Assembly (NCBI RefSeq): GCF_037042905.1
Contig: NC_087250.1
Location: forward strand, 4,900,001 to 4,964,000
DNA length: 64,000 nt
Origin: Lytechinus pictus
Lineage: Eukaryota
Reading direction: 5' to 3'
In this document: piece after piece, positions 1,077 to 63,755 of the stretch
Position numbering within the stretch: the first letter of the stretch is position 1
Layout of the letters: every line of letters begins with the position of its first letter
Position numbers and translations under genes: made by a program
The notes under the pieces: generated by a model
Told to the model about the DNA's origin: nothing
Databases searched by the model: none
What the model saw: the letters and a program-made list of their open reading frames with translations, nothing else

Positions 1077-1333
1077 GGTCCCGTATTACAAAGAGTTGAG
1101 ATTGATCCCATCAAACAAAACTATGGAAAGCCAGCAATCTCAACATAAAAAAGTCATGTTTTATGAATATTCATACATTCATTGTTTTTTTCATAATTCA
1201 GTATGTCCCCCTTTGTTCACAAAAGGACAATGTAAAAAATTTCCTGTAGGAAAAATTATGACAATGATGGATTTCCATATACATGTAGTTGAGGTTGAAC
1301 CGATCATTCAGAACTCTTTATAAGATGGGGGCC
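1077..1333 (+). mobile_element. MITE family A
   Basis: ggcccc..tacaaagagtt TIR; paralogs at 4625, 6917, 10529, 56504, 58958. Confidence 0.8.
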
Positions 1334-1694
1334 CAGTTCGACAAAAAACAGCTTCGAACTAAGACAATGGGAAACATTCAGTTCTGAAAAGCGTTGATGT
1401 CTTTTTTCCTTCGTCACCACTATTCTTAACACTCCATAATGATCATATACGGTAATTTTGTATCGGTGATCTAAATACTGAAAAAGTTTGATGTCAGAGT
1501 CAAAACTTTGATGCGACAGATCAGGACAGGCAACAGTATATTGATAATTATTCTATGCCTAAACTTCATTTTGCGATTTTGATTTGAAGAGGGAAAATTA
1601 ATGGTAGTATATTTTCATGATGTTATAACGGGTATCTCACAAAGGGAATACTCCCAGTGGTGAAATTTTCAAAAAAATTAAAAATAGTAAATTA

Positions 1695-1993
1695 TTATAA
1701 TAATAATAATAATAATACAGGTATATTTACCCAGGGAAGCCGCTTCAGTTCCGAAAACTGTTCTCCCAGCGGGCCCTGCTATTATTATTACCCCGGCTTT
1801 AGCTGGGCTGCCTAGGCGCTCAAAGCATTCAAGGAATTTCTTCCTACCGGGTACCCATTCATCTCACCTGGGTTGAGTGCAGCACAGTGTGGATAAATTT
1901 CTTGCTGAAAGAAATTACGCCATGGCTGGGATTCGAACCCACGACCCTCTGTTTCAAAGTCCGAAGACTAATCCACTGGGCCACAACGCTCCA
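1695..1993 (-). mobile_element. tRNA-derived SINE
   Basis: A box TGGCCCAGTGG, B box GGTTCGAATCC, (TTA)n tail. Confidence 0.88.
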
Positions 1994-2634
1994 GTGTTCT
2001 AAGTTCTTAACAAAGAGTGCAAGTCCCTTGATGGGGCAATTTGGCATATCCATTTTTTTTAACGAGCAAAGTGATGAGCATGATTTAGCTTGTAGATTAT
2101 TACATATCGATCTCTATAACGTGCGAAAACCAAAAAATGAAAACAATCATGATTGCATGGTGGAAAGGGGCATTTACTCCCAAAAGAAGCAAAAATACAT
2201 ATGTAAAATCCACACATTACTGAAAAAAAGTTGAAGACAGTGAATGCCTATGACCTAACAAAAGAAGTAAGATATCATTTAGCATTGGCCTCGAGACATC
2301 TTCTTTTTTTAAAATACTTTCAAGTGCTGGAAGCATTGATCATAGGAGAACTAAAACAGCTCTATACGTTGACAAGCATGTGCACCATACTAGACTATAT
2401 AAACCTTATGGATCATTAATATACACGTAGATATAACCAGGCCATGATTTGAACGACGGTCATTCAAAAATTCAAAGTAATATTAGTGATTGTTTTTTGC
2501 TAAACTCGAACTTTGAAAGATTGAAGGGGCTTTGGAAAATGGAATTCCTTAAAATACATGCACAGCGGAACTTAATAGACTCCTCAGAATTGGATAAGAA
2601 CCTACATAGCAGCAGTTATATAATACCCATCCAT

Positions 2635-3316: not shown

Positions 3317-3852
3317 CAGTCAAACTTGTGTTAGCAGCCACCTGCCTATAGTGACCACTAAAACCGATTCCCATGGAGGCAGATTGTGTGTGTAAGAACC
3401 TGTCTATAGCAGCAATCTACCTATAGTGACCACTAAAACCAATTCCCATGGAGACAGATTGCGTGTATAAGAACCTGTCTATAGCAGCCACCTGTCTATA
3501 GCGACCAATAAAACTGATTCCCATGGATGCACATTGTGTGCGTAAGAACCTGTCTATAGTAGCCACCTGCCTATAGTGACCACTAAAACTGATTCCCATG
3601 GAGACAGATTGTGTGTATAAGAACCTGTCTATAGCAGCCATCTGGCTATTGTGACCAATAACACCGATTCCCATGGAGGCAAATTTTCTATATAAGAACC
3701 TGTCTATAGCAGCCACCTACCTATAGTGACCATTAAAACCGATTCCCATGGAGATAGATTGTGTGTATAAGAACCTGTCTATAGCAGCCATCTGGCTATA
3801 AAGGCAAGATTTTGTGTTCCCCTCGGATGGTCACTGTAAACAGGTTTCACTG
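3317..3852. mobile_element. Tc1/pogo-like non-autonomous element with internal 75-bp tandem repeat
   Basis: TA|CAGT(C/G)AAAC...GTTTCACTG|TA; gaacctgtct recurs at 3396, 3471, 3546, 3621, 3696, 3771. Confidence 0.8.
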
Positions 3853-4218: not shown

Positions 4219-4377
4219 TTACACCCATGAGTCACCTGCCGGTTCGTCCTGGGCCTGGAGCTGAACGTGCTGAGCAGTACTGTAATCACCGTAGTCTTTG
4301 CTGCGGTCGTAGGAGTCATGGCTCATCGACTGGTTCACCGAGGCATAGTTTGAATGCTCCACTTGCGGTTCTGGGGC
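4219..4377 (-). CDS. CTNND2: delta-catenin last coding exon ending GDSWV*
   Basis: tctgcag|, TAA at 4219-4221; DSWV PDZ ligand typical of delta-catenin/ARVCF/p0071. Confidence 0.93.
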   Translation of the reverse strand, partial: APEPQVEHSNYASVNQSMSHDSYDRSKDYGDYSTAQHVQLQAQDEPAGDSWV

Positions 4378-7300
4378 CTGCAGACAAAGGGAAATATGAT
4401 TTTTTTTTCAAAAAAATCAGAAATTAAATAAAAAACATAAGATACTTTAACACCTGGGGCCCGTTGCATAAAACTTTTGCCTTAAAAAACTCTGGCAAAT
4501 ATTTTGCCAGTTTTTTAGTGTAATTTTCAATTGCATAATTTTGTTTGCCAGAGTTTTTGTTTATTTACCATAGTTTTTTTATGGCAAAAGTTTTATGCAA
4601 CGGGCCCCTGGGCTTAATAAACAGGGCCCCGTCATACAAAGAGTTGTGATTGATCCAATCAATCACAACTATGGAAAGTCAACAACGTCAATATCTGTTA
4701 TGCATGTTTGTTCTAAAATATTTTAGATTAGATTTATTCATTTTCCGTTCACAAAGCACAACAAAATCAAACAATACATAGTCAAACTTAAGTACAACAT
4801 CAATCAGAATAAGGTATAAACAATGAGAACTAATGCGAACTTAAGTAACTTTGACTATAATGACTATATAAAACAGAACGTAGGGGCTTGCCAAGAAAAG
4901 CAAAGCTTGTATGAGAGGCAAGCCCCCGTAACTTAGTTTCAGTACGTATATTACAAATCTATAATATAAAGGAGAGACGGAAGACAGTTTAAAAGGAGGC
5001 TATACAAAATATCAAAGGTAACAACGAAAGAGTGACACAAATTATAATAAGTGATAATAATTTTCTAACTACAGTAGGATGTACATGTATAATCATGCAT
5101 TCAATGTTTTCTTGAAAATTTGCTGTGCTTCTCTTTGTTTACTATAAAGGACATTGTGTAAATTACCTGTAGAAAAAATTATGACACTGATGGATTTCCA
5201 GAGTTACGATTGATTGGATCAATCGTAACTCTAATAACCTTTCTTGTATACATAGTTCCCTCAATGATCATTAGTCAAAATTGCAATCAAGGCCAATAAC
5301 ACCTTGCCTGAGGTTAGCAGGCATAGCAACAAGCAAAACATGAATGGGACATCCAAGTATCGAGGCTCATTTCTCATGGCCTTGGGAAGCGGGGATGCCA
5401 ATTTCTTCAGGGGCGCTGCGTTTGTTATTTACCGTAGGCAGCACCCCCTGGAAAACAGGGAGACAAAGCCAATTGAACAGTGTTCAGCATCTCACAGACG
5501 TTCTTGGCCTTATCCTTGGAATTTGAGATATTTCAACTCTATCAAGACCTGATAAGGACGGCCATGCTGGCAACTGTGGCATGCAACCTCATTATCTGTG
5601 ACCACTGGTTGGTCATGTAAAGAGGTCAACTTTTTGTGATTTCTGATAATCAGCAGGGTTCCCACAGCCATGGAAAATCCTGGAAAAATTTGAGGTCATG
5701 GAAAGTCAGGGAAAAGTCAGGGAATTTGGAAAATTTGTGAAAAGTCACAGCATTCATTTACCTCTTGGCTATGGCAGCTTTCCAGTATGTCATGGCTTGC
5801 AACTCTCATACTCTGCTATTATAATCGGTGCTCATGATTTTAATTTCCCCAGTTTCGTGACATCCCAAATTCTGTACATAACTCCCGGGACGTCATGGAA
5901 AGCAGCAATTTGGTCACGGAAAAGTCATGGAATTCTGTTTTCAAATTTCTGTGGGAACCCTGATCAGGGAATCTTGATTGTTCGAATTATTGGACTGTTT
6001 ACTACGGCTAACAATCAAATGGCAAAAAGATTATTCATCCCAGGCTTATAAAGAACCACAAAATTGAAATAGTACGCACCCTTCCATAGACAGACACTCC
6101 TCCGATAGGTGCGGATTTCCGGCCCGTGCTGGCGTAAGGATTATCAGCGTAATCTGAGGAGAGCGGCTGCATGGGAATCTCCTCTCCCGGTATCATGTTA
6201 TCAGCTAATCGGTCTAAGGAAATGAGAAACAAGAGATTCATTTGATCACCAAATTGGCAACAATAATGGTAATTTTTATACCAAAGAAAAAAAAATACAT
6301 TGCAATATTTATTTCAATTGGCAATAATGGTAATTTTTTAACCAAATAAAAAAAAAAACACATTGCAATATATTTATTTCAATGATAAAAACTCTGATCC
6401 TATGATATTCATGAAATTGACAATAATATTTCGTCTTATACTTTACCATAAAAAGAAATAACAGTATATACATGTAAATTTCAATTAAATCTTTTTTTAT
6501 CAAAGATGCAACAATCACAATGCTACTTACATGTATACTATGCAAATCATTATTAATAGATTTTTTTTTAAATTTGGGAGTTGCATGATATTCTTCAAAT
6601 AATCAATAAGTTGTATAATTAAGCATGATTTTTAATCCACAGCAGAGCATGTGCACGAAGTTATAAATAATAGTAAATATTGATTATTTCCTTTAGTTTA
6701 GAACACCTTCATGATTAATATAAACATGAATTTAAATAAGTTAACACAGAGAGGAGAGAGGGAGAGAGAGGTCAAAGTGAGGATAAAAATAGTGAGGGAA
6801 AGGGAGAGAGAAAGAGGGGGAGGGGCTGATTAGCCACACCCCTAAAATTACAGTCAGTCACACCCCAAATTCAACTGAACTTGGACACATACAGTAGGTC
6901 TGTATTCTGAAGTCAGGGCCCTGTCTTCCAAAGAGTTACGATTGATCCGATCAATCTCAACTATGGATGGCTAGCAACATCAACATGTATTACTCATGGT
7001 TGTTCAAAAAAATTCTAGATATGAATGTACATGTATATTCATGCATTCATTGTTATCTTGAAAATTCACTGTGCTTCTCTTTGCTTACAAAGGACATTGT
7101 GCAAATTTCCTATAGAAAAAAATATGACATTGGTGGATTTCCATAGAGTTACGATTGATTGGATCAATCGTAACTCTTGGTAAGACGAGGCCCTGGTTTA
7201 ACTTAGACCATGGTCTAACTCTGTGCTAAAATTATGGGAAGTCACAAGTGTCAACATTTTTATTAAGTTTTATGTTTCTTATGTTTACTCAACTGTGCTC

Positions 7301-10300
7301 TTTCCTGATTCATAGACGGTGAGGACAATCATCTATTTATACTTCCTAGACAATTATGAATGAATTCAGAGCCAAATGAGCTGAAATATGATATCTCTAC
7401 CATTAGTGATTTATGTAACAATTGGCTATCCATACTTAAACCACAACTTTAAAGGAGGAGAGACCTGCGGGTCATAGTGTTTCAGTTCGCTTTTCGCCTC
7501 CCAGGCACAGTTGACGCCAAACAAATAATAATAATAATAATAATAATAAACCTGAGTTTAAGTTAAACCCGACTTCAGAATACGGGCCATACAGTCTTTC
7601 AAGTAAAACTACGGAAATGTGGAGTTATATTTACATCATTTCATGTTAATTCATGCATTAATACTAATGGAAACAGAGAAATTCTTTAAGAGATGTCAAC
7701 ATTTCTATTTTATCTAATTTTCTTTTTCTATTATTACATCACAATTCAGAGGGTACTCCCTATCTAGAATATTGTATGTTGAAAACATTCTTTAAGGGGC
7801 TTTCACAATTGCTTGTGAAATCATTTGCACTCACATTATATGTTGCAAACAATCGCAACGGTTGTAAGCAGTTGCACCACCAATTGTGAAAGGGGCTTTA
7901 ATAAAGAGTACTACCATCACTAAACAATAAAGTGTACTTCTAATGCAGTGCTAAAACACAGTGCAATGGGTTATTCCAATAGAGTTCTCGCACCCACTTC
8001 CAAGTTACATGGAAGAATCTTGATGCAATTCTACCATGCAGTGCAAGGGGTTATTCCACTCATGAAAGAGGGGGGTTTACCACCTATCCTACTGTACGTG
8101 GATACACTTCTTTTGTACAGAATTCTAGCACCCCTCCTTAGAAACATGGTGCAATCTCGGTGCAATGCTACCACACAGTGCAAGGGGTTATTCCACTCAC
8201 CAAAGAGGGGTGTTTGCCACCTACCTTGACTATTGTATGTGGATATGCTTTCTCTAGCATAGGGTTCTAGGCGCTGCATCAAATCATCCTCTACATACAC
8301 ACACACAGGGCAAGAGAAGCACAGACATGGGAAGAAAAGCAATGAAGAAATACAAAATGGTTTAGGAAATTAGTATGTTGCAGCTATGAGCCACCCTGTT
8401 AGGCATAATGGCACATTCCACATGTAAAGGAGCATGCAGGAATTAGATCATTCCATTCAAAATTAGGGGTGTTAGTGGAATTAATAAAAAATTGATATAA
8501 TAACTAAATTTAGCCAAGTTCTTACAACAATCAAATAAATATAATATAAATTACCAATTTCCCATGCACAAGGGCAATTGATATCGTTTTAGCAATACAA
8601 AATATAGTTGCAACAAATATTTTAGGGGAGTTCACATTATGTTGCATTGCATAAGTGTCATGATTTAAAGTTCTTGCAATTTAGACAGATTTGATGCACA
8701 ATAGCGGAAAATATACCCAGTACAATGCTGAATAGAATTATGGGTAATTTGCTGCATATACATGGAAGATGGTGAACTGGCAAGCTTGAGAAAGAGCAAC
8801 TGCATTAAATCTTTCCAGCTAAATAGAGCACTACAAGTAAAAAGAAAATTTCCCCTCGTGAGCAAGCTCAGTGACCACACATCCTGGAAGTTGGTAGGCC
8901 TATGGGGGGAGGGGGACATGGGATCCCCCCTTCCACCATAAATTTTTCAATTTTTTTAATGAAAAAAAAATCATGTTTTAGTGCATTTTAGAATAACATT
9001 CTGGGGATATAATATACATGTACATGAAGATACCCGCTCTGCCTTCTTCACAAAATATTATAGGAAAAATATCATGGGAAAAAATGTTTCAAAATCTGTG
9101 GAAATTTACAGATCCACTGAGAAAAATCATGCCTGAAACTACTGCTAATTTCTATCATTTGGCAAGATCATGTTTTCCTATGGAAGCACACAATCATCAG
9201 TGATATGATATAAAGATAAAACAGATCAGAAGAAATGCATCTTCATCGAATTTTAAAGCTGTGTATGTACATGTAGAAGGAAAATAAACATTGGAAAGCG
9301 ATTGCAAAGCGTTAAAGAATGCTTATGTGAACTCCCCCTTGTGCTACAGGCATACCAACGAAATCATTGGATATAATGTAATAGCTTTGATCGGTCTGGA
9401 GTCGGTTTCGCTGACCTGACAGTAGCATTTAGTATTAAAGTCATGCATGGAAGGAAGAAATATTAAAGGAGAATGAAACCCTTGAAACCAGCTGAATCCA
9501 TATCAAAGAGAAAAATCAAAGAAACATATTGTTGAAAGTTTGAGGAAGATTGAATGAATAATAAGAAAGTTATGAGCATTTGAATATTGAGATCACTAAT
9601 TCCATGTAGATCCTCCCATTGGCAATGCGACCAAGATCTGTGATGTCACACACGTACAACTCCCTCATTACTTTAGTACTTATTTCACTTATATTCTCAC
9701 TTTTGTAGAGTCTATCACAAGGTGAGGTGTTCTCTTTATGAGAGGACAAGTACAGAGGTTTCACAACATTACATCATTGATGAATCGTTTGTCATATGAT
9801 TAAAATGAGCAAAAAGAGATGTTTTGGGGTATATTTTCAGTGTCCAAAAGGGGAGAGTTGTTCATCTGTGACATCATAGATCTTGGTCGCATTGCCAATT
9901 GGAGGATCTCCATAGCATTAGTGATCTCGACATTCAAATGCTCATACATGTAACTCTTTTATTGCTAGTCCCATTTTACTCAAACTTTTGTTGATCTTAT
10001 TCTTTGATTTTTCTGCTTTCACAAAAGCTAACTTGCTCCAAGAGTTTCATTCTCCTTTAAAGTCATGCATGGAAGGAAGAAATATTAAAGGGCAATCTTT
10101 GGAAAGGAAATGCATGTTAAAGAGATAAATAGAAATACAGCCCTTTTTTAATGACATGCAACGTATACACTGTAACTAAAGAGTCAAACCCACACACCAT
10201 ACATAAGGGTCTATTCAAAATATGATTAATAGGAAGGGCACCTTAATTCAATGAATTTTGAAGAAAAAAAACACATTGCATTTAACATATCCTGTCTTAA

Positions 10301-13300: not shown

Positions 13301-14925
13301 GGCCACCAAAAAAAATTATTTGAAGATTTTGGTGGCCCAAACGGGCCACCACCAAAAAAAGTTAATGTGGAGCCTTGTTAAAGGTAAATGCTAGTTTTGG
13401 TAACGATATCAAAATGAGTTCGTACAGAATCCAATGAAATGACCACCAAAGTGTCTGTTTGTATAAATAAAACGCATGTGCCAAAGGATTCTGGAAGAAA
13501 TTGTGTAATTGCTGAGAAATCAGCAAATAAGCACAGGATTCGGGTAGAGCGTCGGGCCCGACGCTCAGAGCAATAATTATACACTGTCCCACGTGCGCTT
13601 ATCTGTGTTGGGGGAGTTCAGTCTGAACATTATTCAGCGTAGATTTCAAGATTTCACAAAGTTCAGTTTATGTAACTGTACCAGATCTAGATCCTCGATG
13701 ACATACTGACAATTAAGCCTGGTTTTACAGACTTTCTCATGAAATCAGTGTTTACTGCAACTACTGGAATTTCTCTTTAACTTTGGACAATTTGATGTGT
13801 TAAGGTAATACTACTACAAAATGAGCTGCATTACAGATTCTTTACAAAACTTTAGGGGCCACGCCATACAGTATGCACGCAAAAAGCCATCCATATGAGG
13901 ATGAAAAATGAACAATTATAATGCACTCGTTGTCATGCCTTGCGTAGGTCATGACGTAAAAATTGAGAAAAGGGTATGTCGGACGGATAAAAAGGTTGAT
14001 TATTTTATGGACTTGCCAGGAGGCCTTCTAACAGGTGATTCACTTGGGAAAGCATACATGTAACTTCATCTACAACTTAATACACGTACTATGAATACCA
14101 GTACAAACAAATATTCATCATGAGGGGCTTGCACTATCAAACATGAATAAATTCTAGCAGCATGTATGTTCAGTGTTGTGATAACAAGCGTTGTTTTTGT
14201 TTTTGTTTAAAAAGGGTGCTTTTTATAGAATGATCAATAACTATGAAAACATTAAAAAAATTGATTTAAATTGCTTTTGTTCGTTCTTACCTGCAGCAAA
14301 GTCCCTATCAACGGATCGTTCGTCATACATGGGTTGATTCTCTGTATTCATTGGGTATGGGTCGTCAAAAGCGGGAGGAGCCTCATCGCGATGGGCGTCG
14401 CTTAGCTCTGGGGCGGGTCTCGTGGGCTGGCTGATGTCGTAACTGTTGGTTTCTGGAATGATGAAGTCAGATGGTGGAGGAAATCAAATAAGATTGTTAT
14501 TGTTAGGATAACCATAATCAGATGAGATGATGAGTATTCCCACATAACAGTACCATGGTAACCTTGGCTACCACTGTCACAATGTTCATTGTAATCATCA
14601 TCACCATAATCATCATCATCACCATAATCATCATCATCATCATCACCATCATCGTCATCGTCATCATCATCATCATTACAATCTTCATCAAAATCATTAT
14701 CAACATAATCATCATCAGTATCATCGTCACCATCACCATCGTCATCACAATCATCATCATTATAAACATAATCTTCATCATCATCATCACCATTTCGATC
14801 ATCATCAATATCATCATCTTCATCATCCGTACACCCACCATTAATACAACTACTATCATCAGCATTATAATTATCATCTCTTTCATCTTCATCATTATCA
14901 TCATCATCATCACCACTACCACCAA

Positions 14926-14962
<37 letters not shown>

Positions 14963-22978: not shown

Positions 22979-23027
<49 letters not shown>

Positions 23028-25848: not shown

Positions 25849-25898
<50 letters not shown>

Positions 25899-47335: not shown

Positions 47336-47420
<85 letters not shown>

Positions 47421-50754: not shown

Positions 50755-50786
<32 letters not shown>

Positions 50787-53700: not shown

Positions 53701-56700
53701 GATGAAGCAAGACATACTCTACAGGAAGTAGGAGTGTGACCAAGGTCGGAATGTAACCTGGCATGTGATGTTGTTCTTCAGATAGATAGTTCGAAGGAAT
53801 TGCGTTGGATGCACATCCGCTGATTGTTACGACAGGGTAACGCCTTGGCCTCCAAAGAAGTCTTTGTAGAGAGAGATCGAGATGATGAAAAGTAGTTCTA
53901 AACATGCGCCTTGAAGAAACTCCCAAGAAGGAATCCTCTAGCACTATAATAGAAATCCGCAGAATAGATATTGGACAGAACTTTCGCTATATATTACTTT
54001 GTGCCAGAAACAGTCAGACTCTGATGCATTTGATTTTGTATTCAAAATGTTGTTTTATGCCTTGATGTATGCTTAATATTTTTGCTTCCATGTTTTCCTT
54101 TTCCTCTTTTCTAACCTTTCGTATGTCATTCTCATCTTGACATTTTCTGATCTCAATACAACTCTGTTTGCTCTTTCTATCTATTTCTGTATATATATTG
54201 TTTTGGGTTGTTAATGTAAGAACGTTACTTCCCTTTATGTACTATGCCAATGTATATACCTGTATATTTTTAACGATGTTTTAATGTTTTCTTTTCTTCA
54301 TGGGAAGAGCGAGATAACGTTCAAAGAAATTCATTTTTATGCTTTGTTGTTAATACCTGGTCCGAGGACAGCCCAGACTTGGGGAGGGGCTGTGTAGCAT
54401 AATGAGTTATGCCTTTAAGATGTATTTCATAGTTAAGTCGTAGAGGGCGATATTTTCATGTAGTGATATGCTTTACGATTATTGGAGAAGTACGTCAGTT
54501 CGCTGGGAGCTGCGGTGGCGTGCGGTTGTAAGATGTAAGCTCCGAATAAATCAAGTTGAACTGTATACTGAATATCTCCCAAGTTGCTTCATTTGCATGA
54601 TTTAGGGTGAGTGAGCGGGTGATCCGGTGTATTTCAGAGGAGCGAGAGAGTGTACCACGTTGCACAATATACTTTTGTGAACGAACCTGCCCCAAAAAGA
54701 GATATAAAAGTGAGGAGAAGCGTGGACCGGGTTCTGGAGACTGCGAGACGGCAGAACGCTACCCCCGACAGGGCCCGGTTACGCCACAGTATCAAAAGTA
54801 TTTGACAACAAAATGCAAGATAACAAATGAACTTTATGCTCATATTTAAAGGTCAGGTCCACCCCAGAAAAATGTTGATTTGAATAAAAAGAGAAAAATC
54901 AAACTAGTATAACGCTCAAAATTTCATCATAATTGGATGTATAAGAAGGTTATGACATTTTAAAGTTTCCATTATTTTTCACAAAACAGTGATATGCACA
55001 ATTCAGTGACATGCAAATGAGACAGTCGATGATGTCCCTTTACTCACTATTTATTTTATTTTTTATTGTTTGAATTATACAATATTGCATTTTTTGATAG
55101 ATTTGACAATAATGGACCAACTTGACTGAACCATGTACATGTACTATCAAATAATGCTAATTCCACATGTTCAGGGAGTAATTAATTGTTGTTTCACTTG
55201 ACAATGAGGAGAAAATTAGAATATGCCATCTTTCATATAATAAAATACAAAAGAAATAGTGAGTGGATGACGTCATCAAATTCCTCATTTGCATACCGAC
55301 TAGGATGTGCATATAACTGTTTTGTGAAATTAAGTGCAACTTTAAAATGTCATAACTTTCTTATTTTACATCCGATTTTGATGAAATTTTCAGTTTTATG
55401 CTTGTTGGATTTTTCTCTTTTTATTCAAATCAATGTTCTGTTGGGGTGGACTTGCCCTTCAATGAATTCTTAACATTGTAACCCCATCAAGGTACAACAA
55501 TGATGGCCGCACAGGTGACAATGCGTCATTCAGGGGAGCGTTTCATGAAAGGACTTGTTGGACGTTTTATCCGACACGTCCCATTTTATTCGACAGTCCT
55601 CATAGTAACAGTGCTTCACAGCCAATCAAAATCCAGAAAAGTTGTCAGATCTGACAAGTTGTTGGGCAAAAACGTTGATGCAACCGCTCCCCTGCTGTGT
55701 TTACCGAGGCAAAGCGATCTTAAAAACTACATCGCGAGGTGGTTTTCCGAACTGGTTTGGAAGATCGCTTCCAAGACCGCTTCGACCGTTCTCACTACGC
55801 GTTAAAATTCTACCAAATTAGTTTCCAGTACTAGTTTTAGGAACGTAGTGAGAACGGTGGCTAAGAAATGAGCTTGACTTTGACAAGTAGTCATCATCTG
55901 AATCATATACAGGCCCAGGCACTTATAAAACATACTTACTCCTGCATCGTACGGGTGAGGAGCATAGTCTCCGCCCCCATACGGGTCATGTGACAGTGAT
56001 CTGGTTGTGTTGCCGTATGGGCTGGCGTATGCTGTAAAGACACAAAAGACAATCAGAAAAACGGATGAAATATTAAAAATGTGTTCTTATGAAACAATAA
56101 GCACTGGATAAAAATATATATCAAAAGAGAATATCAAATTTATTTAGTTAATTATTGCAAAACAAAACAAAAGTTTGATATCTGAGTGAAAAAAGTGAGT
56201 TTTAGAATAAGAATGTTCGATCAGTGATACCACATAGGATTGATGAATATTTAGGAAATCAGTATACGCAGAAATCATCCACTGGTAGCTTGCATGGAAT
56301 CCTTGATTCTGATTGGCTGTTGATCATCGTTACCATGGTAGATGCAATTACATGTAGATTGCAAAGTTACCGTAATAGTAACTTTTATGTAACGGCATCC
56401 AGGCATGAAAAAAATGCTTTGAATCAAGGCTTTTATTGGACTCATAGTGGGGCAACTTATACACAGTTTATACATGTAGTATTAAGTATCCTATGCTGAC
56501 TAGGGCCCCGTCTTACAAATAGTTATGATGGATCCAATCAATCGTAACTCTATGGAAATCAATCAGTGTCATAAATTTTTCTACTGGTAATATGCACAAT
56601 GTCCTTTGTAAACTAAGAGAAGCACAGTGAATTTTCCAGAAAACAATGAATGCATGAATATACATCATAGTTAGGAAATATTTTGAACATGCATAATGTT

Positions 56701-57796
56701 GACGTTGCTGGCCTTCCATAGTTGTTATTGATCGGATCAATCGCAAATACCTGTAAGACAGGTCCCAAGGATGGCATCTCACAGCGCTTTGTTATTTCGT
56801 TGAAAATGCACTGAGAAAACATCAACTCATCATCATCATCAGCCATTATCAGCCCACTGCAAGGCGAAGGCCTTCCCAAGTTGGTGCCAAAGGTGCTTGT
56901 CTTGTGCTGATGTAATCCACCTTGAGCCAATAAACTTTTTGAGCTCGTCACTCCATCTTAATTTTTGTCTACCCCGATTTCATAGAAATATTAAATATTA
57001 TTAACTATTATCACGTGCGATTAAAAAATAAAATACCCCAGACGGGTATGTCATAAAGCTGTTCGTAAAGCAGACCTGCCAACCTCTGGGAATGAAAAAC
57101 TGTATTCTGTGATTAAAAAAACTGTATTTTTCCCCAAAAAAATGTATTTCATAATAAAATGCTTGGCGCACTCGCATATCGCAGCGCTCAAGCTGCATGC
57201 AAGCTAAAATGCGCACTGCTCTTGCAGATGAAAAAAAAACATTGAAACATGTGTATAACTTCACCCTGGTTTTAACAATATGATTGAAATAAAAAACAAG
57301 TTACCTGAAATTACATTGATCTAATAACCACATTTCTGTACGTTTTATGAAATAGAGACATATAGAGATGATTTTTTTCAATAAATTACGATTTTGTAAA
57401 AAAAAATTATATATACATGTATATATATATACTGTATATATTTTTTTTTACAAAAACATATTTTTTAAAGAAAAGACATACATGTACTGCCGTATTTTGG
57501 TTGCAAAAACGTACTAAATACGCCTAAAACGTACTGGTTGGCAGGTCTGGTAAAGTTACAAGCGACTTAAGTAACGGCTGGTGATCCTTTCTTAAGGCAA
57601 GTGGTACACACCTGATTTCCATTAACATTGATTTTAAGGGTCACCAGTCGTTTGTTAAGTCGCTCGTAACTTGTGAACAGCTTTATGAAACACTAAACCA
57701 GGATTCCAGCGCGTTGCCAATTTGAAGTACTTACGATCTGAATACTGTAGTGATTCCATGTTGGGATCTTCAACGTTCCTCTCTCCTAATTCTCTT
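4219..57796 (-). CDS. CTNND2: Catenin delta-2 / p120-subfamily armadillo protein, 5'-partial, 25 exons (some probably alternative), 3238 coding nt
   Basis: GT-AG exons with compatible phases join into one frame. ARM motifs [100 protein letters not shown]-terminal GDSWV*. Confidence 0.93.
4457..4607. mobile_element. Harbinger-like MITE, CTG TSD
   Basis: 25-bp TIR gggcccgttgcataaaacttttgcc. Confidence 0.85.
4625..5232 (+). mobile_element. MITE family A interrupted by a minus-strand LINE 3' end (~4727-5062)
   Basis: MITE homology on both sides; insert has stem-loop ggggcttgcc..ggcaagcccc and tail aataaatctaatcta. Confidence 0.75.
5654..5962. mobile_element. hAT-like MITE with 5-bp TSD (atcag)
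   Basis: TIR cagggttcccacag. Confidence 0.8.
6080..6213 (-). CDS. CTNND2: delta-catenin penultimate exon ([16 protein letters not shown]...SVYGR)
   Basis: ttccttag| ... |gtgcgt; phase 1 to 0. Confidence 0.85.
6897..7588. mobile_element. MITE family B with nested MITE A (6917-7192) and a retro-tail insert (~7454-7546)
   Basis: colinear with 40537-40828 plus 47745-47768. Confidence 0.85.
7795..7897. mobile_element. Short palindromic MITE
   Basis: ctttcacaattg ... caattgtgaaag; ttaa flanks. Confidence 0.55.
8225..8290 (-). CDS. CTNND2: candidate cassette exon ([21 protein letters not shown])
   Basis: pyrimidine/TG tract, tatgtag| ... |gtaggt; 66 nt, phase 1-1. Confidence 0.65.
9467..10056. 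mobile_element. Kolobok-like non-autonomous DNA transposon (family C)
   Basis: TTAA|AGGAGAATGAAAC...TTTCATTCTCCT|TTAA; near-identical copy at 31117-31700. Confidence 0.88.
10529..10844 (+). mobile_element. MITE family A
   Basis: TIRs and family homology. Confidence 0.82.
11189..11495. mobile_element. Kolobok-like family D, internally deleted
   Basis: ttaa|aggtcaagtccacccc ... ggggtggacgtgacct. Confidence 0.8.
11625..11678 (-). CDS. CTNND2: candidate cassette exon ([17 protein letters not shown])
   Basis: gactccag| ... |gtaaca; 54 nt, phase 1-1. Confidence 0.6.
11791..13377. mobile_element. CAAGG-ended DNA transposon (P/hAT-like), 7-bp duplication ttaaagg
   Basis: TIR caaggctc(g/c)acatta(g/a)c; subterminal ggtggccc repeats. 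Confidence 0.78.
13382..13776. mobile_element. Kolobok-like element (family E)
   Basis: TTAA flanks; AG..CT termini. Confidence 0.65.
14291..14452 (-). CDS. CTNND2: delta-catenin C-terminal exon ([12 protein letters not shown]...VDRDFAA)
   Basis: attccag| ... |gtaaga; 162 nt, phase 1-1. Confidence 0.8.
14593..15660. repeat. (ATC/ACC)n cryptic microsatellite with ~450-bp internal duplication
   Basis: direct inspection. Confidence 0.95.
15671..15872 (-). CDS. CTNND2: delta-catenin exon ([20 protein letters not shown]...QRHTS)
   Basis: acacag| ... |gtgagt; MW..KD.R..YKKDGW family motif. Confidence 0.93.
16772..16865 (-). CDS. CTNND2: delta-catenin ARM exon ([12 protein letters not shown]...VIKAAYQ)
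   Basis: ctgcag| ... |gtaggt. Confidence 0.92.
16927..17200 (-). mobile_element. SINE fragment (core plus tail)
   Basis: cctaccgggtacccatt core; attaccccgg junction. Confidence 0.65.
17346..17490 (-). CDS. CTNND2: delta-catenin ARM exon ([13 protein letters not shown]...NQENAK)
   Basis: ttttag| ... |gtaagt. Confidence 0.93.
17727..17874. mobile_element. Harbinger-like MITE
   Basis: gggcc(c/t)gtttcataaag TIR. Confidence 0.75.
18391..19140. mobile_element. piggyBac-like non-autonomous element
   Basis: TTAA|CCCTAA...TTAGGG|TTAA; abuts the right end of a family D fragment (~18239-18386). Confidence 0.8.
19160..19310 (-). CDS. CTNND2: delta-catenin ARM exon ([22 protein letters not shown]...NKDLI)
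   Basis: tttcag| ... |gtaagc. Confidence 0.95.
19369..19657 (-). mobile_element. tRNA-derived SINE
   Basis: same head and tail as 1695-1993. Confidence 0.88.
20454..20640 (-). CDS. CTNND2: delta-catenin ARM exon (KTGTWNPSQ...[10 protein letters not shown]...NVTAGEWQ)
   Basis: ttgcag| ... |gtgagt. Confidence 0.93.
20914..20992 (-). CDS. CTNND2: delta-catenin insert-loop exon ([27 protein letters not shown])
   Basis: gaccag| ... |gtaagt; CFG-polybasic motif like p120 SCFGAKK. Confidence 0.88.
22047..22178. mobile_element. MITE family F (gggagcgtttcat TIR)
   Basis: paralogs at 22550-22699 and 55534-55691; degenerate copy ~29570-29717. Confidence 0.78.
22219..22360 (-). CDS. CTNND2: delta-catenin ARM exon ([16 protein letters not shown]...SQQKK)
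   Basis: tgtcag| ... |gtaagt. Confidence 0.93.
22550..22699. mobile_element. MITE family F
   Basis: TIRs and family homology. Confidence 0.8.
22746..23185. repeat. (GAT/GGT)n microsatellite
   Basis: direct inspection. Confidence 0.95.
23214..23331 (-). CDS. CTNND2: delta-catenin ARM exon ([24 protein letters not shown]...DMDNQ)
   Basis: ctacag| ... |gttag. Confidence 0.92.
23261..24135 (-). repeat. ~151-bp tandem repeat of a splice acceptor plus exon 5' half (5 copies)
   Basis: plus-strand ctg (acceptor CAG) at 23332, 23484, 23635, 23933, 24084. Confidence 0.92.
23774..23918. mobile_element. Harbinger-like MITE with CTG TSD in a duplicated exon fragment
   Basis: empty site cccacCTGaactc is visible in the sister repeats. 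Confidence 0.88.
24336..24490 (-). CDS. CTNND2: delta-catenin ARM exon ([11 protein letters not shown]...NATGCLR)
   Basis: ccaacag| ... |gtatg. Confidence 0.93.
24694..24975 (-). mobile_element. tRNA-derived SINE, third tail type
   Basis: head nearly identical to the 1695-1993 copy. Confidence 0.88.
25283..25330 (-). CDS. CTNND2: delta-catenin ARM exon ([16 protein letters not shown])
   Basis: attag| ... |gtgag; GTLWNLSS motif. Confidence 0.92.
25379..26861. repeat. (ATC/ACC)n microsatellite, ~1.5 kb
   Basis: direct inspection. Confidence 0.95.
26887..27076 (-). CDS. CTNND2: delta-catenin ARM exon ([12 protein letters not shown]...LLRTSSDTE)
   Basis: ctacag| ... |gtgag; [11 protein letters not shown]. 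Confidence 0.95.
28018..28156 (-). CDS. CTNND2: delta-catenin exon, first ARM repeat ([17 protein letters not shown]...IKRKTR)
   Basis: tttgtag| ... |gtatcc; p120-family ARM1 motif. Confidence 0.93.
28559..28872. mobile_element. hAT MITE, 8-bp TSD gtaccaac
   Basis: TIR cagtgtt(c/a)tagcta. Confidence 0.85.
30832..30945 (-). CDS. CTNND2: candidate cassette exon ([38 protein letters not shown])
   Basis: pyrimidine-rich upstream, atcag| ... |gtgaga; 114 nt, phase 1-1. Confidence 0.55.
31117..31700. mobile_element. Kolobok-like element, family C
   Basis: TTAA TSD; long TIRs. Confidence 0.88.
32352..32399 (-). CDS. CTNND2: candidate cassette exon ([16 protein letters not shown])
   Basis: ttcttgtag| ... 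|gtatcc; 48 nt, phase 1-1. Confidence 0.5.
33036..33340. mobile_element. MITE with ataggccggggc TIR
   Basis: 12-bp terminal inverted repeat. Confidence 0.55.
33627..33773 (-). CDS. CTNND2: delta-catenin exon, symmetric phase 1 ([11 protein letters not shown]...DPFIPPEK)
   Basis: gaaatag| ... |gtcag; 147 nt open. Confidence 0.8.
34271..34846. mobile_element. Kolobok-like family D
   Basis: TTAA flanks; homology to the 54850 and 63083 copies. Confidence 0.85.
36305..37530. repeat. ~300-360-bp diverged tandem repeat (4 copies)
   Basis: tcttgtaagctc..at.tacata recurs at ~36421, 36723, 37033, 37396. Confidence 0.85.
38916..39312. mobile_element. hAT-like MITE with 6-bp TSD (aatata)
   Basis: TIR caga(c/g)ctgc(t/c)aacc; paralog at 57071. 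Confidence 0.82.
41044..41880 (+). CDS. LINE ORF1 (coiled-coil plus RRM-like, L1 ORF1-type)
   Basis: 278 aa; motifs [26 protein letters not shown]. Confidence 0.85.
   Translation: MQKDSMTTRLRSYSTTGAIPKDPKSRDPPQQQDDPKPPREPTLSEIRETILSSSASTNRKLDILTTEIASIKRKQDEFEEALKNNSDEIAFLHKEKLPNLEKEMEKKIAQLEGKIMEMEIYSRRGNLLFYGVKETRDENVYDVLQKTFVDLGVEDSSDIKIAIAHRLPRRVHGVQANSTRSQAPNPIIAKFLFMGDRNRILSTFENSQRRRDADTVGDKITVRTDLPPILKAKRGALAKIAYNLRKTKGVSTKIVVIGPTVQLQWKEKNTTKWNIYRD
44005..47262 (+). CDS. LINE ORF2: apurinic endonuclease plus reverse transcriptase
   Basis: 1085 aa; NIRSL, GLCETWL, GDFN, SDHFP (APE); [28 protein letters not shown] (RT). Confidence 0.96.
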   Translation: MFLLLQWIHISLYVDFDQLQCSTKENIYSLCYVCIYICILPNLCAMPMSMDVFPMHSLDENEFTSLFNNSHTQFLPSHGDGADNFEESISEQLNHEMQSLSVTIDPNDLLSPISESKYLTENKFVKEYSAFKKDMSFFQFNIRSLSKNLDNFKSFLDTLSFDFSVIGLCETWLTDGNYPLHLLDMYSYFGNNRKNKTGGGVGLYVLNQFQTKSLEELNQMSDLAETVFVEIIVPRGKNIVIGEIYKPPQANPLDFFELLEGLLSAPTLQNKVCFIMGDFNLDLLKCNSCNVCQQFYDIMLSKSFLPLINKPTRISDVSSTLIDNIFTNVDQCLSSGIIISDMSDHFPVFTFSPTPDHIINCSRSMTRNYSEDNLCKFRECLAQADWSQVYTNSDPNEAYNIFVNRFLNLYNTNIPLKSSSWNYKKTPRSPWITMSLLRCINRKNRLFYKYKKVKSDQSKRRYSSYRNTLTTLLRTAKKNYFSRQFEENKYDVSSTWKVINNVLNKKPKSLSISTIMINSSENRNPMLIAETFNDYFINIGPNLARDIPNSDVDFRSFLKEPNGQSIFFTPITSREIMIIVKDLKTKKSSGYDNITNFLLKKTINEIVQPLTYLFNLSLITGVVPEKMKISKVIPIHKKGNKHDIGNYRPISLLSSFSKILEKLIYSRTVNFLNKYNILSKVQFGFRKKHSTTHALLMFIDKIATSIDAFSHTVGLFLDFSKAFDTINHDILIFKLSHYGIRGKALEWFRSYLSNRQQFVCIKNQESHKKLITCGVPQGSLLGPLLFLIYINDFQNCSNILSFLLFADDSNIFISHKNPQSLLQTLNHELIFVLNWIHSNKLSLNINKSNYILFSNTIANLPGPVFLNNTPLVKVDTTKFLGVYIDSKLTWKAHINHISKIISRNTGVICKLKSSFPTRVLLCLYSTLILPYLNYGILSWGNSSKLHINKILLIQKRLIRIINNASYRAHSMPLFYSCNVLQIYDLYAFNLGIFMFQLSRKELPITVSSLFRRNDEIHSYPTRQSHYYHLPRTRTAFSHKTIIVTGPLFWNELLTDFKDCNSIYTFKRKLKIYILNKYLNDNSSAP
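48940..49119 (-). CDS. CTNND2: delta-catenin exon, symmetric phase 1 ([12 protein letters not shown]...ATSPGP)
   Basis: ctccctcccag| ... |gtatga; 180 nt open, GC-rich. Confidence 0.7.
49395..50070 (+). repeat. Polypurine (GA-rich) low-complexity tract
   Basis: mostly G/A; recurring aatggcggtacaggggaag. Confidence 0.9.
50082..50224 (-). CDS. CTNND2: delta-catenin exon ([15 protein letters not shown]...HTPPPA)
   Basis: tgtttag| ... |gtatg; phase 2 to 1. Confidence 0.85.
50330..50820. repeat. (ATC/ACC)n microsatellite
   Basis: direct inspection. Confidence 0.9.
50856..51082 (-). CDS. CTNND2: delta-catenin exon ([10 protein letters not shown]...EDPYGTRD)
   Basis: catttgcag| ... |gtgag; phase 0 to 2. 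Confidence 0.85.
51245..51452. mobile_element. SINE-like fragment with tRNA-like head
   Basis: gggaatcgaacccc (B box on the minus strand) at ~51398-51410. Confidence 0.45.
51901..51919 (+). other. Primer-binding site, tRNA-Leu-like
   Basis: TGGTGGCCGCGGTGGGATT just after the 5' LTR; one mismatch to the complement of a typical tRNA-Leu 3' end. Confidence 0.7.
52005..53190 (+). repeat. ~50-bp GC-rich minisatellite inside the LTR element
   Basis: unit gcctacacacgttggtgaatagcgccctgagtgtgtgtggcggagatagc, with interspersed cctggagagaggcaagaag variants. Confidence 0.92.
54850..55458. mobile_element. Kolobok-like family D
   Basis: TIRs and homology. Confidence 0.85.
55534..55691. mobile_element. 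MITE family F
   Basis: TIRs and family homology. Confidence 0.8.
55940..56031 (-). CDS. CTNND2: delta-catenin exon ([31 protein letters not shown])
   Basis: ctttacag| ... |gtaagt; phase 1 to 0. Confidence 0.8.
56504..56765 (-). mobile_element. MITE family A, reverse orientation
   Basis: family homology. Confidence 0.8.
56828..56975 (-). mobile_element. RTE-clade LINE 3' fragment
   Basis: [44 protein letters not shown] followed by (TGA)n tail. Confidence 0.75.
57071..57549. mobile_element. hAT-like MITE with 6-bp TSD (gtaaag), nested in another MITE (~57043-57695)
   Basis: TIR cagacctgccaacc; host arms cataaagctgttc / gaacagctttatg. Confidence 0.85.
57735..57796 (-). CDS. CTNND2: delta-catenin exon ([20 protein letters not shown])
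   Basis: tctcgcag| ... |gtaagt; phase fits next exon. Confidence 0.7.
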
Positions 57797-58957
57797 CTGC
57801 GAGATACAAAATACAAAACAAATTTAGTTGAAATTGTGGGTGCCTATTAAACTACGCATATGAAGTAAAGCAAGCTAGGGGTTCAATTCACGGTGCAGGC
57901 CTTCTGTCCTTGAGTACTACATTTAACATACAATGCATTGTTATATTTACATCAAATATTAACTGAAAATGTCACATGCATTGATTGATACCGATATGTG
58001 CACATGTTTTGAAGAAAAAAATTAGACAAAATAATTATCCAAACTATGAAACATGCAATAAAAGAAAATATTGACACAAAATTTCGAAAGCAGCACTGTA
58101 AGGCATGCAAAAATTGTGAAAAACCAAAGAATAACTGAACATTTAATATAAGGTTAGTGCTTATTAAAGTTGTTAGGATCACAGCATGTCACAGTTTATG
58201 AACATCATGGAAGTACAAGTATTGTAGCATGCAATACAACTTTGCTAATAGAACGCTGATGGCAGGATTCATGAGTATGAATAATATACATGTACATGTA
58301 AATATGGTGTTTTATTATTTCATATTTTGCATTGTGAATTGCTACATTTTACTCATGGATGTTCTAATATGGTGTAAATCTGTTTTACTGGAATCGAATA
58401 AATACTGAAATGAATTGAACTAAATTGAATGAGAGTTTATGCTTGATGAATAACTCATTATACTTGTGGTACCGACAGTCACTGACTATGCATGAAAATC
58501 ATAAATCATTTTTTTAAAGGCTGAAAATAAACGTGAAAAAGGGCTGAAAATAAACATGAAAAACAAAGCATGAAAATGTATTGTATTTGTAAATACTGTG
58601 CATGGGATGAACATGGCATGCGGTGTTCACGTACTGAACAGAACAAACTGAAATAACATGAAAAGCCGAGACACAAAAAAGTACAGTAATCGAGATTACA
58701 ATACAAAACAACAAATGAATAAACATCAGTTTGTACTGCTATCTGAGTGTTTATAATCAGCAAAAAATACATGCATGTACATGTACCAAGTAGTCCGGAA
58801 GGCCTATTTTCACACCTATTAGAACAGACAAGTTGCACTTTCACAGACATATCATGCGTTGATGTGCAGATGAAGTAATAACCAAAAGTATCATACTCTG
58901 TTGCTTTGTCCTTTAGAATTCTGCGATTGGCATATCAAAAGGACAAGGGTACACCTG

Positions 58958-59440
58958 TGCCCTGTCTTACAACGAGTTGTGATTGATCCGATTAATCACA
59001 ACTGTGGACGGCCAGCAACGTCAACATATAAAATGCATGTTTGTTCAAAATATTTTCTAGATTTGATGTATATTCATACATTCACCGCTTTCTTGACAAT
59101 TCAGTATGCTTCTCTTTGTTTTCGAAAGAACATTGTGCAAATTTCCTGTTGATAAAAATTATGACACTGATGGATTTCCATAGAGTAAAGATTGATCCGG
59201 TCAACCTCTAGAAGATATATATGGAAATCCATCAATATATGTTTTTCTTTAGGAAATTTGCACGATCTCCTTTATAGTAAACAAAGAGAAGCATACTGAA
59301 GTGTCAAGAAAACAGTGAATGTATGAATATGAATCATATCTAGAAAATATATTGAACAAGCATGTATTTTTAGATGTTGACGTTGCTGGCTTTCCATAGT
59401 TGTTGAACGAATCAATCATAACTCTTTGTAAGACAGGGCC
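58958..59440. mobile_element. Two family A MITEs fused in inverted orientation
   Basis: ~58958-59195 forward, ~59220-59440 reverse. Confidence 0.78.
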
Positions 59441-62400
59441 CTGTAATAGCACACGTAGATTTTCATCTTTGTATATTTATCTATCTGACTCAACCTTATA
59501 CAAGCAGTCATGTCTCAAGAATGTGCGGCTCACATAACGACTGCACAGGGATCATGAGAAAGTTCATTCCTAGAGGGACTACAAGACAAAACATTTTCCT
59601 CGTTACCTTGCTACTTCTAGAAGGTGACATAATATTTTGTAACTTTCAACGACTTGTAGATGTACAAGTGTGTCTTTGTTTATAACTGCAAAGCACTCTT
59701 TATATTTTAATTGAAGTAATGATTTTTTTATGGAGGGGAGGGGCACAGCAAGAATGATTTTTATAGTTCCTCAAAATTCCGGGTAACAAAAAATTGTGTA
59801 AATATGTAGTGTAGGCCTATAAAATGTACATATGTGTGTACCTCAATGATAAAAACCTACATGGAAAATTGAAGGTTCACATGAATGTTTAAATTCTATT
59901 AAACTTCTTGAAAACATTTCGTAGATATATATAATTATTTCATAATTTGAGGACTGGAAAGGAGGGTGGGGGGTGGCACCAAACGGTTATTGATTTTGAT
60001 TGCTTCTACGACTAAAGGTAATGAAGCACATTATGAGTTTGTGTCTCAACAATGTATAATTTGTAAATTTTGTGAGTGCTGAAATTCAAAGTTCTGCAAA
60101 AGATATTTTGTATCTTGGGCATGCTTCTATAAGGGGGAGGATATGATTTGGGGTTTTCAGTTTCATTGCTGCTCCTTCAACTTATAAAGGAGACGAAATA
60201 TCTTGCAAATTTGTTTTTCTCAGATGTAGATCTTTGTGAATGTTTAACTTTGGGCTAAAAAAATGTTATTGATATTTTACAAGCTACTCTAAATGGTGAT
60301 TATAAAAGAGGCTATACTTCACAAGGAGAAGGACCGCTCAAATATCTGCAAAACATTTTCTTGTACATGTCTGCTTCTCCTGAGAAACAGCTGGTGATAA
60401 AAAAATATTTTGTAACATTGTATCTTTACTTTGATTAACAAGGATATAAACTGTTCATAGGTCACAGTTGAAATTTTGGTGCAAGACATTTTCCATCTAT
60501 GAACAGATAATATCGACTATCGATGTGTAGGCTATAAAAGTAATGGCAAACATTCTCTCAAAACAAGATCTTTAACAATATAAACAATTGCTCAACTTTG
60601 TATAGCATTTTTCTATTTTTGCAAAGGAATTTACCCTCATGCTAGAACAATAATGCTTCCCCTTTTAGAAAACTGACTTTTGCACACCATTTTACGTATT
60701 CTTAGAAATGAAAACAGTAGAATGTTTTTCAAACTTTGAACTTTGTAATGATGAGTAAGTAGTAAAACAAAAGTCATTGAAAAGTAATAGCCATTGTTGA
60801 AAATCTGTTCATGGCAGTCCCTATTGTTAATCTGTATACGGGTAGTCCGCAGGCACAGACCCTAATTGAAACTTTGATCAAAGAGTGGGTCTCCAAGCAA
60901 AGACTAGCACATACAAAACTTGCTGTTTCAATTCCTGAGCGAGAGGGCCTTCAGTACACAAGGCATGAGTAGGCTGCACATTCAGACCCTTAAACTCGAG
61001 TGAAGGGTTTGCTCAGCAGACTAGTATACGGGCACAAGAAAATGTATGTTTTCCCTATAATGAGTACTCAATAAACTCTGTCATTTTCATTTGCCCATAT
61101 TTACATGTTGTTGGCCTAATAGGTCTAGTAATTCTAGCATTGACAGTTTATCATTTGAAAAATTGACTTCACAAACTACCTTTTCTCATATCATCTCTGC
61201 ACGTCTCTGCTTGCATATATCCCGACAATAAGATACAAAAATATAATTGGGCTGCATTCAATAAGTAAATGATTTATAAAGTTGCCAAAAGAAATGAAAT
61301 TTGTGGTGCATCAGTATCAATCCTGTATTTTTACAGGCAGACTTACATTCAAGTCTCTTTTTTACGGGCTAATATACACTTGCGCATATTTAAAGAAAAC
61401 TTAATATTAGCAATCAATAATATTAGCTTATGACAGCCACATCAATCATGGCATCATGTCCATTTAAGTTTCGTTTGCTCATTCACATTTTGTTTGCTCA
61501 TTGGTAAGAGCAAACATGCCATATTAAAGGTATTTGAGAAGGGGGTTCAAGGGTCAAAAGCTGAAAATAAAAAAAAGAAAGAGGCTCACTGGAATATTTT
61601 GCCATAAAGTAATAGGACTTTATATTTTTATAGAAGGTACTATTTCACTATGGATTACTGTTTTTATGAAGATCAAGAAATATATGATGATGATAATGAT
61701 GATAATAAATTGGACTTGTTTCATGTCAACTCCACTCCGTAGAGTGCTCAAGGAGCTGTTCAAGAAATTTTGAAGGAGATAAAAGAATTGAACAGAAATG
61801 TTTTTACATGTTTTTTTAAGTTAAATTTTTTTTATTTTGTTATGGGAAGGCTGTTCGATAAAAACCATAACTTAGAGGATGAGAGGAAAAATGATCTTTC
61901 TGGGATACAGATTTACTGTTACCAATGAATCTGCCAACTAGAAGCCTCTCAATAGTTTGAAGCCTCTCAATAGTTTTATGTAAGCACCCACTGGATAGGG
62001 TCAAATGGTCTTTATTGACTACAGTAATTCAGTTAACTTTCAGTCCAGTGGGTGCTCAATCTATACTCTGTTATGTTTATTATCTGCTGTACTACACTGT
62101 ACCAATTTCTTATACTTTTCATTGCCGAAATAAATAATGATAATAATAATAATAGGATAACATCATAACAGATATCTGCGCAACTTTTGAGACAAAACTC
62201 AACATAGATGTAGACGACGTAAATATTTGTGTTTTTGTCTGCTTGTCTTGTTGTTGTTTTTTGTGCATCTATAATAAGCCTATATGTATAAGGATCTGGA
62301 AAATACTTCAATTTTGAAAGAGAATTATCCAACTCACAAAAGGTTGAGTGATGCAGACTATTGTGTATGTCAAGGGTACCGTAATGTTATTCCTGTCTGA

Positions 62401-63082
62401 TTCTCATTATACAGGATAATGCATTGAAGTCCTGGACTAACTTTATTCAAGGATTAACTATCAATATGAACAAGGCCATTCAATGACATAATAGTGCAAG
62501 ACTAACCCCTCTTTAGCTGACAGCTGAAGTATGATTGATGTGTTCATACAAGAAATAATCTCTAATAAAGCAAATTACAGATTATTATTACATGAACAAG
62601 GCAAGGTCCCCTCTTTTGAAATTCTGACTAATATGCCGTGGGAATAAAAAATAATGTGAAATTATTAAGGTTTATATGAAATCCTGAAGATATTTGGCCC
62701 TTAAACTGTTTCAAACCTACTGAGAAAACTTTATAATTGCAGTTATATTGTAAAAAATAAGATGGAGAGAATATTTTTTGTTTTCTTGACTCGAAGATAA
62801 GCCTAATATTTTGATGACCATGATACCCCCAACACCCCGCCCCCCCTCCATTCACATTTCAAACAAGGGTCAATGATCTTGTTTTACAAACATATGCTCT
62901 CTCCCAATTTATATTTGATAGCTGATGCATAATAATGATAACATGCAAATTCAAAACAAGAAAGTGATAATTATTCAATTAAAGCAACAAAGAGAAAGGT
63001 CATTGAATTTCTTCTAAAAAACAAAAACTCATCATTCACACTTAATTTAAAAATATTTCTAAATATAAAAAAAAACTTTTAA

Positions 63083-63698
63083 AGGTCAAGTCCACCCCAG
63101 TAAAATACTGACTTGAATATATATATTAATAGAGAAAAATCAAACTAGCATAGTGCTGAAAATTTCATCAAAATCGGATGTAAAATAAAGAAAGTTATGA
63201 CATTTTAAAGTTTTGCTTATTTTTCACAAAAACAGTGAATGCACAACTTGGTGAGTCAGTCGATGATGACCATCACTCACTATTTCTTTTGTTTTTTATT
63301 GTTTGAATTATACAATATTTCATTTTTATAGATTTGACAATAAGGACCTACATGTACATGTACTAAACTGAACCATATAGTATTAAACAATGCTAATTCC
63401 ACATGTACAGGGAGGAATTAATCGTTGTATCACTTGACAATGAGGAGAAAATTAGAACATTTCATATTTCATACAATGAAATACAAAAGAAACAGCGAGT
63501 GGATGACGTCATCAGTCTCCTCATTTGCATACCGACCAGAATGTGCATATCACTGTTTTTTTTTATTATTAAAGCCAAACTTTAAAATGTCATAACTTTC
63601 TTATTTTACATCCGATTTTGATGAAATTTTCTATGTTATGCTTGTTGGATTTTTTTCTTTTTATTCAAATCTACTTTTTGTTAGGTTGGACTTGTCCT
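63083..63698. mobile_element. Kolobok-like family D
   Basis: TIRs and homology. Confidence 0.85.
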
Positions 63699-63755
63699 TT
63701 TAAAGCAGCATGGCACATGACAGGGTTTATGGGAACAGGGTAACATTTTATACAT

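Follow-up and report, generated by a model that had tools for sequence, protein, structure and literature searches.

We examined a 64,000-nucleotide stretch of the sea urchin Lytechinus pictus (assembly GCF_037042905.1, contig NC_087250.1, positions 4,900,001 to 4,964,000; hereafter the window), in which the eight-letter word TACATGTA occurs about 20-fold more often than expected. These words are very probably transposon scars of one kind or another, and it is likely that they are germline-inherited excision footprints of TA-targeting Tc1/mariner cut-and-paste transposons, with about 40 of 45 independent sites being scars and some 3–4 being chance words. A preliminary description of the window had already read them as Tc1/mariner footprints, and this reading is supported because three of its predictions were found: a constant, non-templated CATG accompanied by a duplicated TA (insertions of +6 bp), a target preference (A at -3 and T at +3), and an element of the form TA-CA...TG-TA (3317–3852).

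The search returned 49 overlapping matches of TACATGTA, from 1280 to 63362. They correspond to 47 loci, since those at 58287 and 63349 are double, as the preliminary description had noticed, and to 45 independent sites after subtraction of two tandem-duplicated copies (23556 and 23708). The 47 loci of this field (1280..63362) start at 1280, 2938, 3195, 3309, 5082, 6469, 6528, 7028, 9015, 9268, 9945, 10345, 10633, 14055, 16959, 17111, 23405, 23556, 23708, 25006, 27132, 27321, 28905, 33945, 33988, 34864, 35289, 36003, 36089, 36404, 37880, 39727, 40182, 40391, 47811, 49489, 49505, 51218, 53187, 55136, 56349, 56471, 57414, 57479, 58287 (double), 58778 and 63349 (double), a density of about 1 per 1.4 kb. 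Markov models of orders 0, 2 and 3 expect 2.1–2.8 matches and order 1 expects 1.7, while two sets of 60 simulated sequences gave means of 2.3 and 2.55 and a maximum of 6. The earlier estimate by eye (more than 45 against about 2) was thus accurate, and the excess over a Markov background that had been set beforehand as a test is present in the window. Higher Markov orders expect more matches (7, 23 and 45), solely because sub-words of the motif itself are then part of the model. Fifteen other palindromes share the form TA-xx-x'x'-TA; TATATATA alone reached 13 copies and the remainder were found 0–4 times. The matches were not significantly clustered (9 gaps of at most 200 bp vs 7.1 simulated, p=0.26).

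The preliminary description had also proposed that repeat copies be aligned to polarise the CATGTA insertions and deletions. Paralogs were found by masked self-BLAST and family alignments, which replaced a repeat finder that was swamped by CAT microsatellites. Thirteen sites had a paralog within the window: seven were insertions, two were probable insertions, three were length-neutral and one (35289) was ambiguous. The insertions were of +6 bp at 7028, 9945, 10633, 47811, 55136 and 57479 and of +12 bp at 63349, and the paralog has a TA in 5 out of 7 cases. The insertion is the derived state at these sites, because other copies lack the inserts and, within families A and B, the position of the insert varies from copy to copy.

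The cleanest scar (9945..9952) is located in one arm of a 600-bp miniature inverted-repeat transposable element (MITE; 9460–10060). Against the copy at ~31591 the gap is of exactly 6 bp, which bears out the insertion at a TA previously described for this pair, and 3 out of 4 inverted-repeat arms have a plain TA, namely the other arm of the same element and the two arms of its copy at 31110–31704, which is 96.5% identical. In family A, the scar at 10633..10640 (+6 bp) corresponds to a plain TA in the copy at 6913–7201; this second pair (10633 vs 7018) was likewise confirmed, and the second copy has an insertion of its own at the neighbouring TA (7028..7035, +6 bp). The latter insert is also present in a copy fragment at 5082, which we count as a probable insertion together with the site at 1280 (6 bp longer than five copies, of the same length as a sixth). 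The family B scar at 55136..55143 (+6 bp) has two paralogs with a TA and no insert, and the scar at 57479..57486 (+6 bp) has a paralog at ~39246 with a TA and flanks that differ by substitutions. The double scar at 58287..58300 is without a paralog for comparison. MITEs of ~600 bp with long inverted ends starting TTAAAGG form two families in the window (9460–10060, 31110–31704, 34263–34852, 54842–55462 and 63076–63705), which we provisionally take to resemble Kolobok- or piggyBac-type elements.

For the flank test, each scar was collapsed to a TA and ten flanking positions were compared with those of the other TAs. The strongest deviation lay at position 3 of each flank (chi-square p=2.3e-7), followed by position 5 (p=0.005) and position 1 (p=0.03). 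An A at -3 was found in 30 of the 45 sites (background 32.9%, p=3.6e-6), a T at +3 in 23 of the 45 (30.4%, p=0.003), and both together in 14 of the 45 (10.4%). The most enriched half-site was CAT/ATG, and 11 of 90 half-sites extend a TACATG repeat (2.4 expected); without these 11 the half-site bias was still 42/79 against 29.8% (p=1.2e-5), and control TA-NNNN-TA words gave 31.4% (n=291). The scars therefore have the palindromic A(-3) and T(+3) of Tc1/mariner targets. A transposase dimer is expected to leave a palindromic bias at this distance of three bases from the TA, and slippage does not predict it. The Tc1 target is given as CAYATATRTG and that of Minos as ATATATAT in the available text of PMC2577343, and a set of 1,659 Tc1 insertions is described with conserved A/T at the same positions as in the window scars (PMC9635669, available text).

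In the mechanism that we propose, an element with 5'-CA ends would insert at TA, with a preference for A-T-R-TA-Y-A-T that corresponds to the target signature above, and would duplicate the TA. On excision, the transposase would leave each flank with two bases of the element, forming 3' overhangs that are non-complementary, as is established for Tc1 (PMC4490562, in the portion available). End joining that retains and fills both overhangs would then produce TA-CA-TG-TA, with the net gain of 6 bp that was observed at TA sites in the paralog comparisons. Such events would have been repeated in the germline, probably over a long time, and each scar would provide two good half-sites (ATG-TA and TA-CAT) that may attract re-insertion and so give rise to doubles.

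The Tc1/Tc3 footprint of Caenorhabditis elegans has the same eight letters: the duplicated TAs enclose an insert of +4, and the same A/T bias is seen three bases outward from the TA. The passages available to us describe the +4 scar as the typical somatic Tc1 footprint (78%; PMC13148408) and write the footprint as taCATGta, citing Eide and Anderson 1988 (PMC3520976). In the worm, somatic repair typically leaves this scar, whereas the outcome of germline repair varies; in contrast, the urchin scars are inherited and dense, and no transposase was found in the frames scanned. Sleeping Beauty also leaves element-end bases between duplicated TAs and has a palindromic A-rich target, but its footprints are cag/ctg, of +5 bp and with a 3-nt stagger (PMC5224488, in the part available); the +5 class is weakly raised in the window (16 vs 9.2). 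We also tried two asymmetric footprints as candidates, TA-CAG-G-TA (9 vs 1.7 in the window) and TA-CAG-TG-TA (5 vs 0.7), and rejected them because several are found in repeat copies without length change and because the excess was not replicated in other host DNA (10 vs 9.7 and 0 vs 3.6, respectively, in 212 kb).

The TA-CA...TG-TA element (3317..3852) is non-coding; its terminal inverted repeats are CAG...CTG, and it contains six 75-bp repeats. It has a TA on both sides, the left one being shared with the scar at 3309 as its second TA, and its first and last two bases between these TAs, CA and TG, match the scar bases, two letters alone being weak evidence. This CAG...CTG MITE has been expanded to 536 bp, from the 150–190 bp typical of its relatives, by six 75-bp tandem units (3332–3800) into which a part of the terminal repeat is incorporated. 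A search pattern derived from the two ends of the MITE matched at least 120 metagenome loci, a sample selected for the MITE and not random. Among the matches listed, to which all the following metagenome results refer, most of those with both ends visible were 150–190-bp MITEs, and the surrounding DNA was animal-like (nuclear-receptor, SRCR and SNF domains). These relatives favour A(-3) as well (98 of 188 distinct half-sites vs 33.1%, p=6e-8).

When the listed loci were grouped by contig prefix, the word TACATGTA itself was found 61 times against 8.7 expected in the largest group (86 loci), 6 times against 1.0 in a group of 18 loci, and 0–1 times in three small groups. The 68 scars of these loci have the flank bias too (62/136 half-sites, p=0.002), and their profile correlates with that of the window (r=0.67). 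In addition, +5 words were raised in the largest group (80 vs 44.7) and +4 words in the 18-locus group (52 vs 23.9), as if hosts differed in cut or repair. MITE insertions beside scars were too few to carry weight (2/188 half-sites vs 0.6 expected). The MITE family shows that suitable elements exist, and not that this family made the scars.

Several results weigh against the Tc1/mariner footprint reading. Germline Tc1 repair in C. elegans is described as variable (26 products among 103 animals; PMC4490562, in the portion available), and the sibling footprints TACATA/TATGTA had no excess in the window (54 vs 54.8); a word count is blind to variable deletions, so uniform repair is not demonstrated either. 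The target profile of the MITE relatives, which come from other hosts, was not significantly correlated with that of the window scars (r=0.32, p=0.13), and G at -3 made up 23% in the relatives and 6% in the window scars; because of this lack of correlation the family is not established as the source. One resident CA...TG element to ~40 scars is an odd ratio. Pfam detected no transposase in the 87 of 127 window frames scanned, those skipped being mainly in exons, the long interspersed nuclear element (LINE) described below or satellite, nor in 73 of 82 frames of the listed loci, where the skipped frames overlapped scanned ones.

In the paralog comparisons, 2 of the 7 insertion sites have paralogs without TA, so that each of the two requires a further substitution: the +6 bp scar at 47811..47818 is opposed to two family D paralogs reading TG/CA, and the double scar at 63349..63362 (+12 bp) to two family B paralogs reading AA. 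Moreover, 3 of the 13 testable sites were length-neutral. The motif at 23405 and its two duplicates (23405..23715) lie where the units of an exon fragment repeated in tandem adjoin; these three copies have the same length as the copy at 23980 and represent one event that is not an insertion; the motif at 36404..36411, in a 300-bp tandem repeat, was born by substitution; and that at 53187..53194, at a satellite edge inside an element bounded by long terminal repeats (LTRs), is background or inherited. We assign these three sites to chance, and their number is roughly what the background predicts.

We give little credence to the first alternative, a mutational process independent of transposons (slippage, quasi-palindrome template switching or polymerase-theta templated inserts) that would add CATGTA at TA breaks. 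It would account for the half-sites that extend the TACATG repeat, and the motifs at 36404 and 23405 did arise by the perfecting of a near-palindrome with length unchanged. However, slippage and local templating fail at 9945, because the six added bases match neither flank, direct or inverted, and these flanks were unable to template the insert. The paralog empty sites for 9945 and 10633 hold no copy of the (TACATG)n unit from which slippage would start. Templated repair would yield inserts that depend on the flanks and not one constant word, and the -3/+3 bias persists after removal of the repeat-like flanks. Slippage by adjacent duplication may still apply to the second unit of the doubles.

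A Minos-like geometry receives even less credence. Minos leaves a six-bp footprint, a point on which our literature search gave no confirmation, and ends that start with the palindrome CATG would give 4-nt cohesive overhangs that are re-ligated without fill-in; this would account both for the uniformity of the scars and for the unenriched TACATA/TATGTA. No TA-CATG element with inverted ends emerged from the scan, either from the window, where two scars formed a single borderline pair, or from the listed metagenome loci, the scan being of limited sensitivity, as it also missed the diverged 3317–3852 element. The sole TA-flanked element found begins with CAG and not with CATG.

The accumulation of TACATGTA by selection as a transcription-factor site is very improbable, even though the word is described as an abundant Phytophthora promoter motif and an Irx site (PMC3520976) and as bound by PsMyb37 (PMC11134190), in both cases in the text available. 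The motif arises as entire 6-bp insertions in scattered MITE copies, and it is not significantly clustered (p=0.26). Selection leaves its origin unexplained; later co-option may have taken place. A sequencing or assembly artefact can practically be dismissed, since the motif is missing from the LINE and the exons, the target bias is biological, and the same motif with the same bias is present in unrelated metagenome contigs.

We compared the scar field with the gene and the LINE that share the window. An exon translation of 63 amino acids is 100% identical to Lytechinus variegatus catenin delta-2-like / plakophilin-4-like proteins, and 24 coding exons were placed on the minus strand (4222..57795) by mapping L. 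variegatus proteins. Because of this match and the mapped exons, the window is identified as a sea-urchin delta-catenin locus, mainly intron. None of the 24 exons (3,183 bp) has TACATGTA, as the preliminary description stated, and this absence is uninformative because only 1.25 copies are expected (P0=0.28). By a hand count, 13 of 24 introns contain the word, which barely sustains the earlier claim that most introns were visited, and four sites lie outside them, downstream of the stop codon.

The LINE (41023..47262, plus strand) has an ORF1-like frame and an open endonuclease/reverse transcriptase frame of 1,085 amino acids, and it served as an internal clock. Its earlier description as a young element free of the motif agrees with the count, which gave 0 exact copies at 41000–47300 against 5.4 expected (P0=0.003; post-hoc P=0.044 for the largest gap); one-mismatch copies had no excess there (4 vs 4.9). 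An AT-rich 2.1-kb spacer (41880–44005) separates the ORF1-like frame from ORF2, and a 94-nt poly-T follows ORF2 on the same strand (47337–47430).

In 52 kb of the window, one-mismatch copies of the motif were more abundant than expected (74 vs 39.6), with a weak flank signature (58/148, p=0.03). Taken at face value, they would have a mean divergence of ~9% and would point to a process far longer than one burst; this is suggestive only, because the 1.9-fold ratio falls below the top 15 of 256 palindromes. The single very active element of the preliminary description is thus not borne out, given this hint of a long-running process and no transposase in the frames scanned.

In each scar the second TA gets the left flank ATG and the first TA the right flank CAT. 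We found 2 doubles among the 45 sites against ~0.5 expected (a rough estimate based on uniform TAs). The two doubles and the MITE at 3309 are compatible with re-use of scars, and are too few for proof. Degenerate stacked forms were also observed beside scars, TACATGCATG before the 58778 motif (58768–58785) and CATGAA after the 9015 motif (9015–9028), and they may be older doubles or triples.

Excision footprints are usually regarded as rare and invisible in genome sequence. Their chemistry is known from textbooks and C. elegans, and what is new is most likely their unusual inherited density. Our literature search, with most subscription journals and supplements outside its scope, returned no animal genome described with TACATGTA as a dense class of footprints. 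In the literature found, the whole word was reported only by plant-pathogen papers, chiefly on Phytophthora, as a transcription-factor site (PMC3520976 and PMC11134190, in the text available). The Phytophthora motif-1 / AM-20 is the same abundant word in non-coding DNA. The publications present it, unlike the urchin scars, as a site for transcription factors, and in those texts the authors discussed a footprint origin and rejected it on the basis of abundance and conservation.

If the scars are such footprints, the ~0.7 scars per kb of urchin non-coding DNA would be a countable record of departed transposons, whose target preference and repair pathway would be legible from the sequence. They would also be a separate in-frame (+6 bp) class of mutation, would mean that the urchin germline, in contrast to that of C. 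elegans, uses fill-in end joining, and would confound motif discovery, because TACATGTA is also a known transcription-factor site. A broader reading is speculative and, in our view, rather unlikely as a whole: TACATGTA would be a long-running, self-reinforcing class of germline mutation in many eukaryotes, in which Tc1/mariner elements insert and depart much more frequently than they remain (here ~40 scars for each resident element) and scars become preferred new targets that seed (TACATG)n; the same process would be the unrecognised origin of the Phytophthora TACATGTA 'promoter motif', which would be a ready-made Irx/Myb site disseminated by departing and not by arriving transposons.

Finally, the window contains further repeats. 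An Rfam scan of 11100–64000 gave 0 matches. At 51504–54788, a satellite of 50-bp units is enclosed by a pair of 396-bp direct repeats that are 100% identical. These have TGT...ACA ends and are flanked by a repeat of 4 bp (GTAT); Pfam had no match in the frames scanned, and the whole has the appearance of a non-autonomous LTR element of very young age. Three catenin exons have tandem partial copies in the neighbouring intron (19155–19990, 20093–20639 and 23220–24212), the last with four copies at a spacing of ~151 bp. Imperfect (CAT/CAC)n trinucleotide arrays of up to 1.5 kb were found at 14594–15560, 22745–23149, 25379–26862 and 50546–50811, and several of them begin near exon boundaries.

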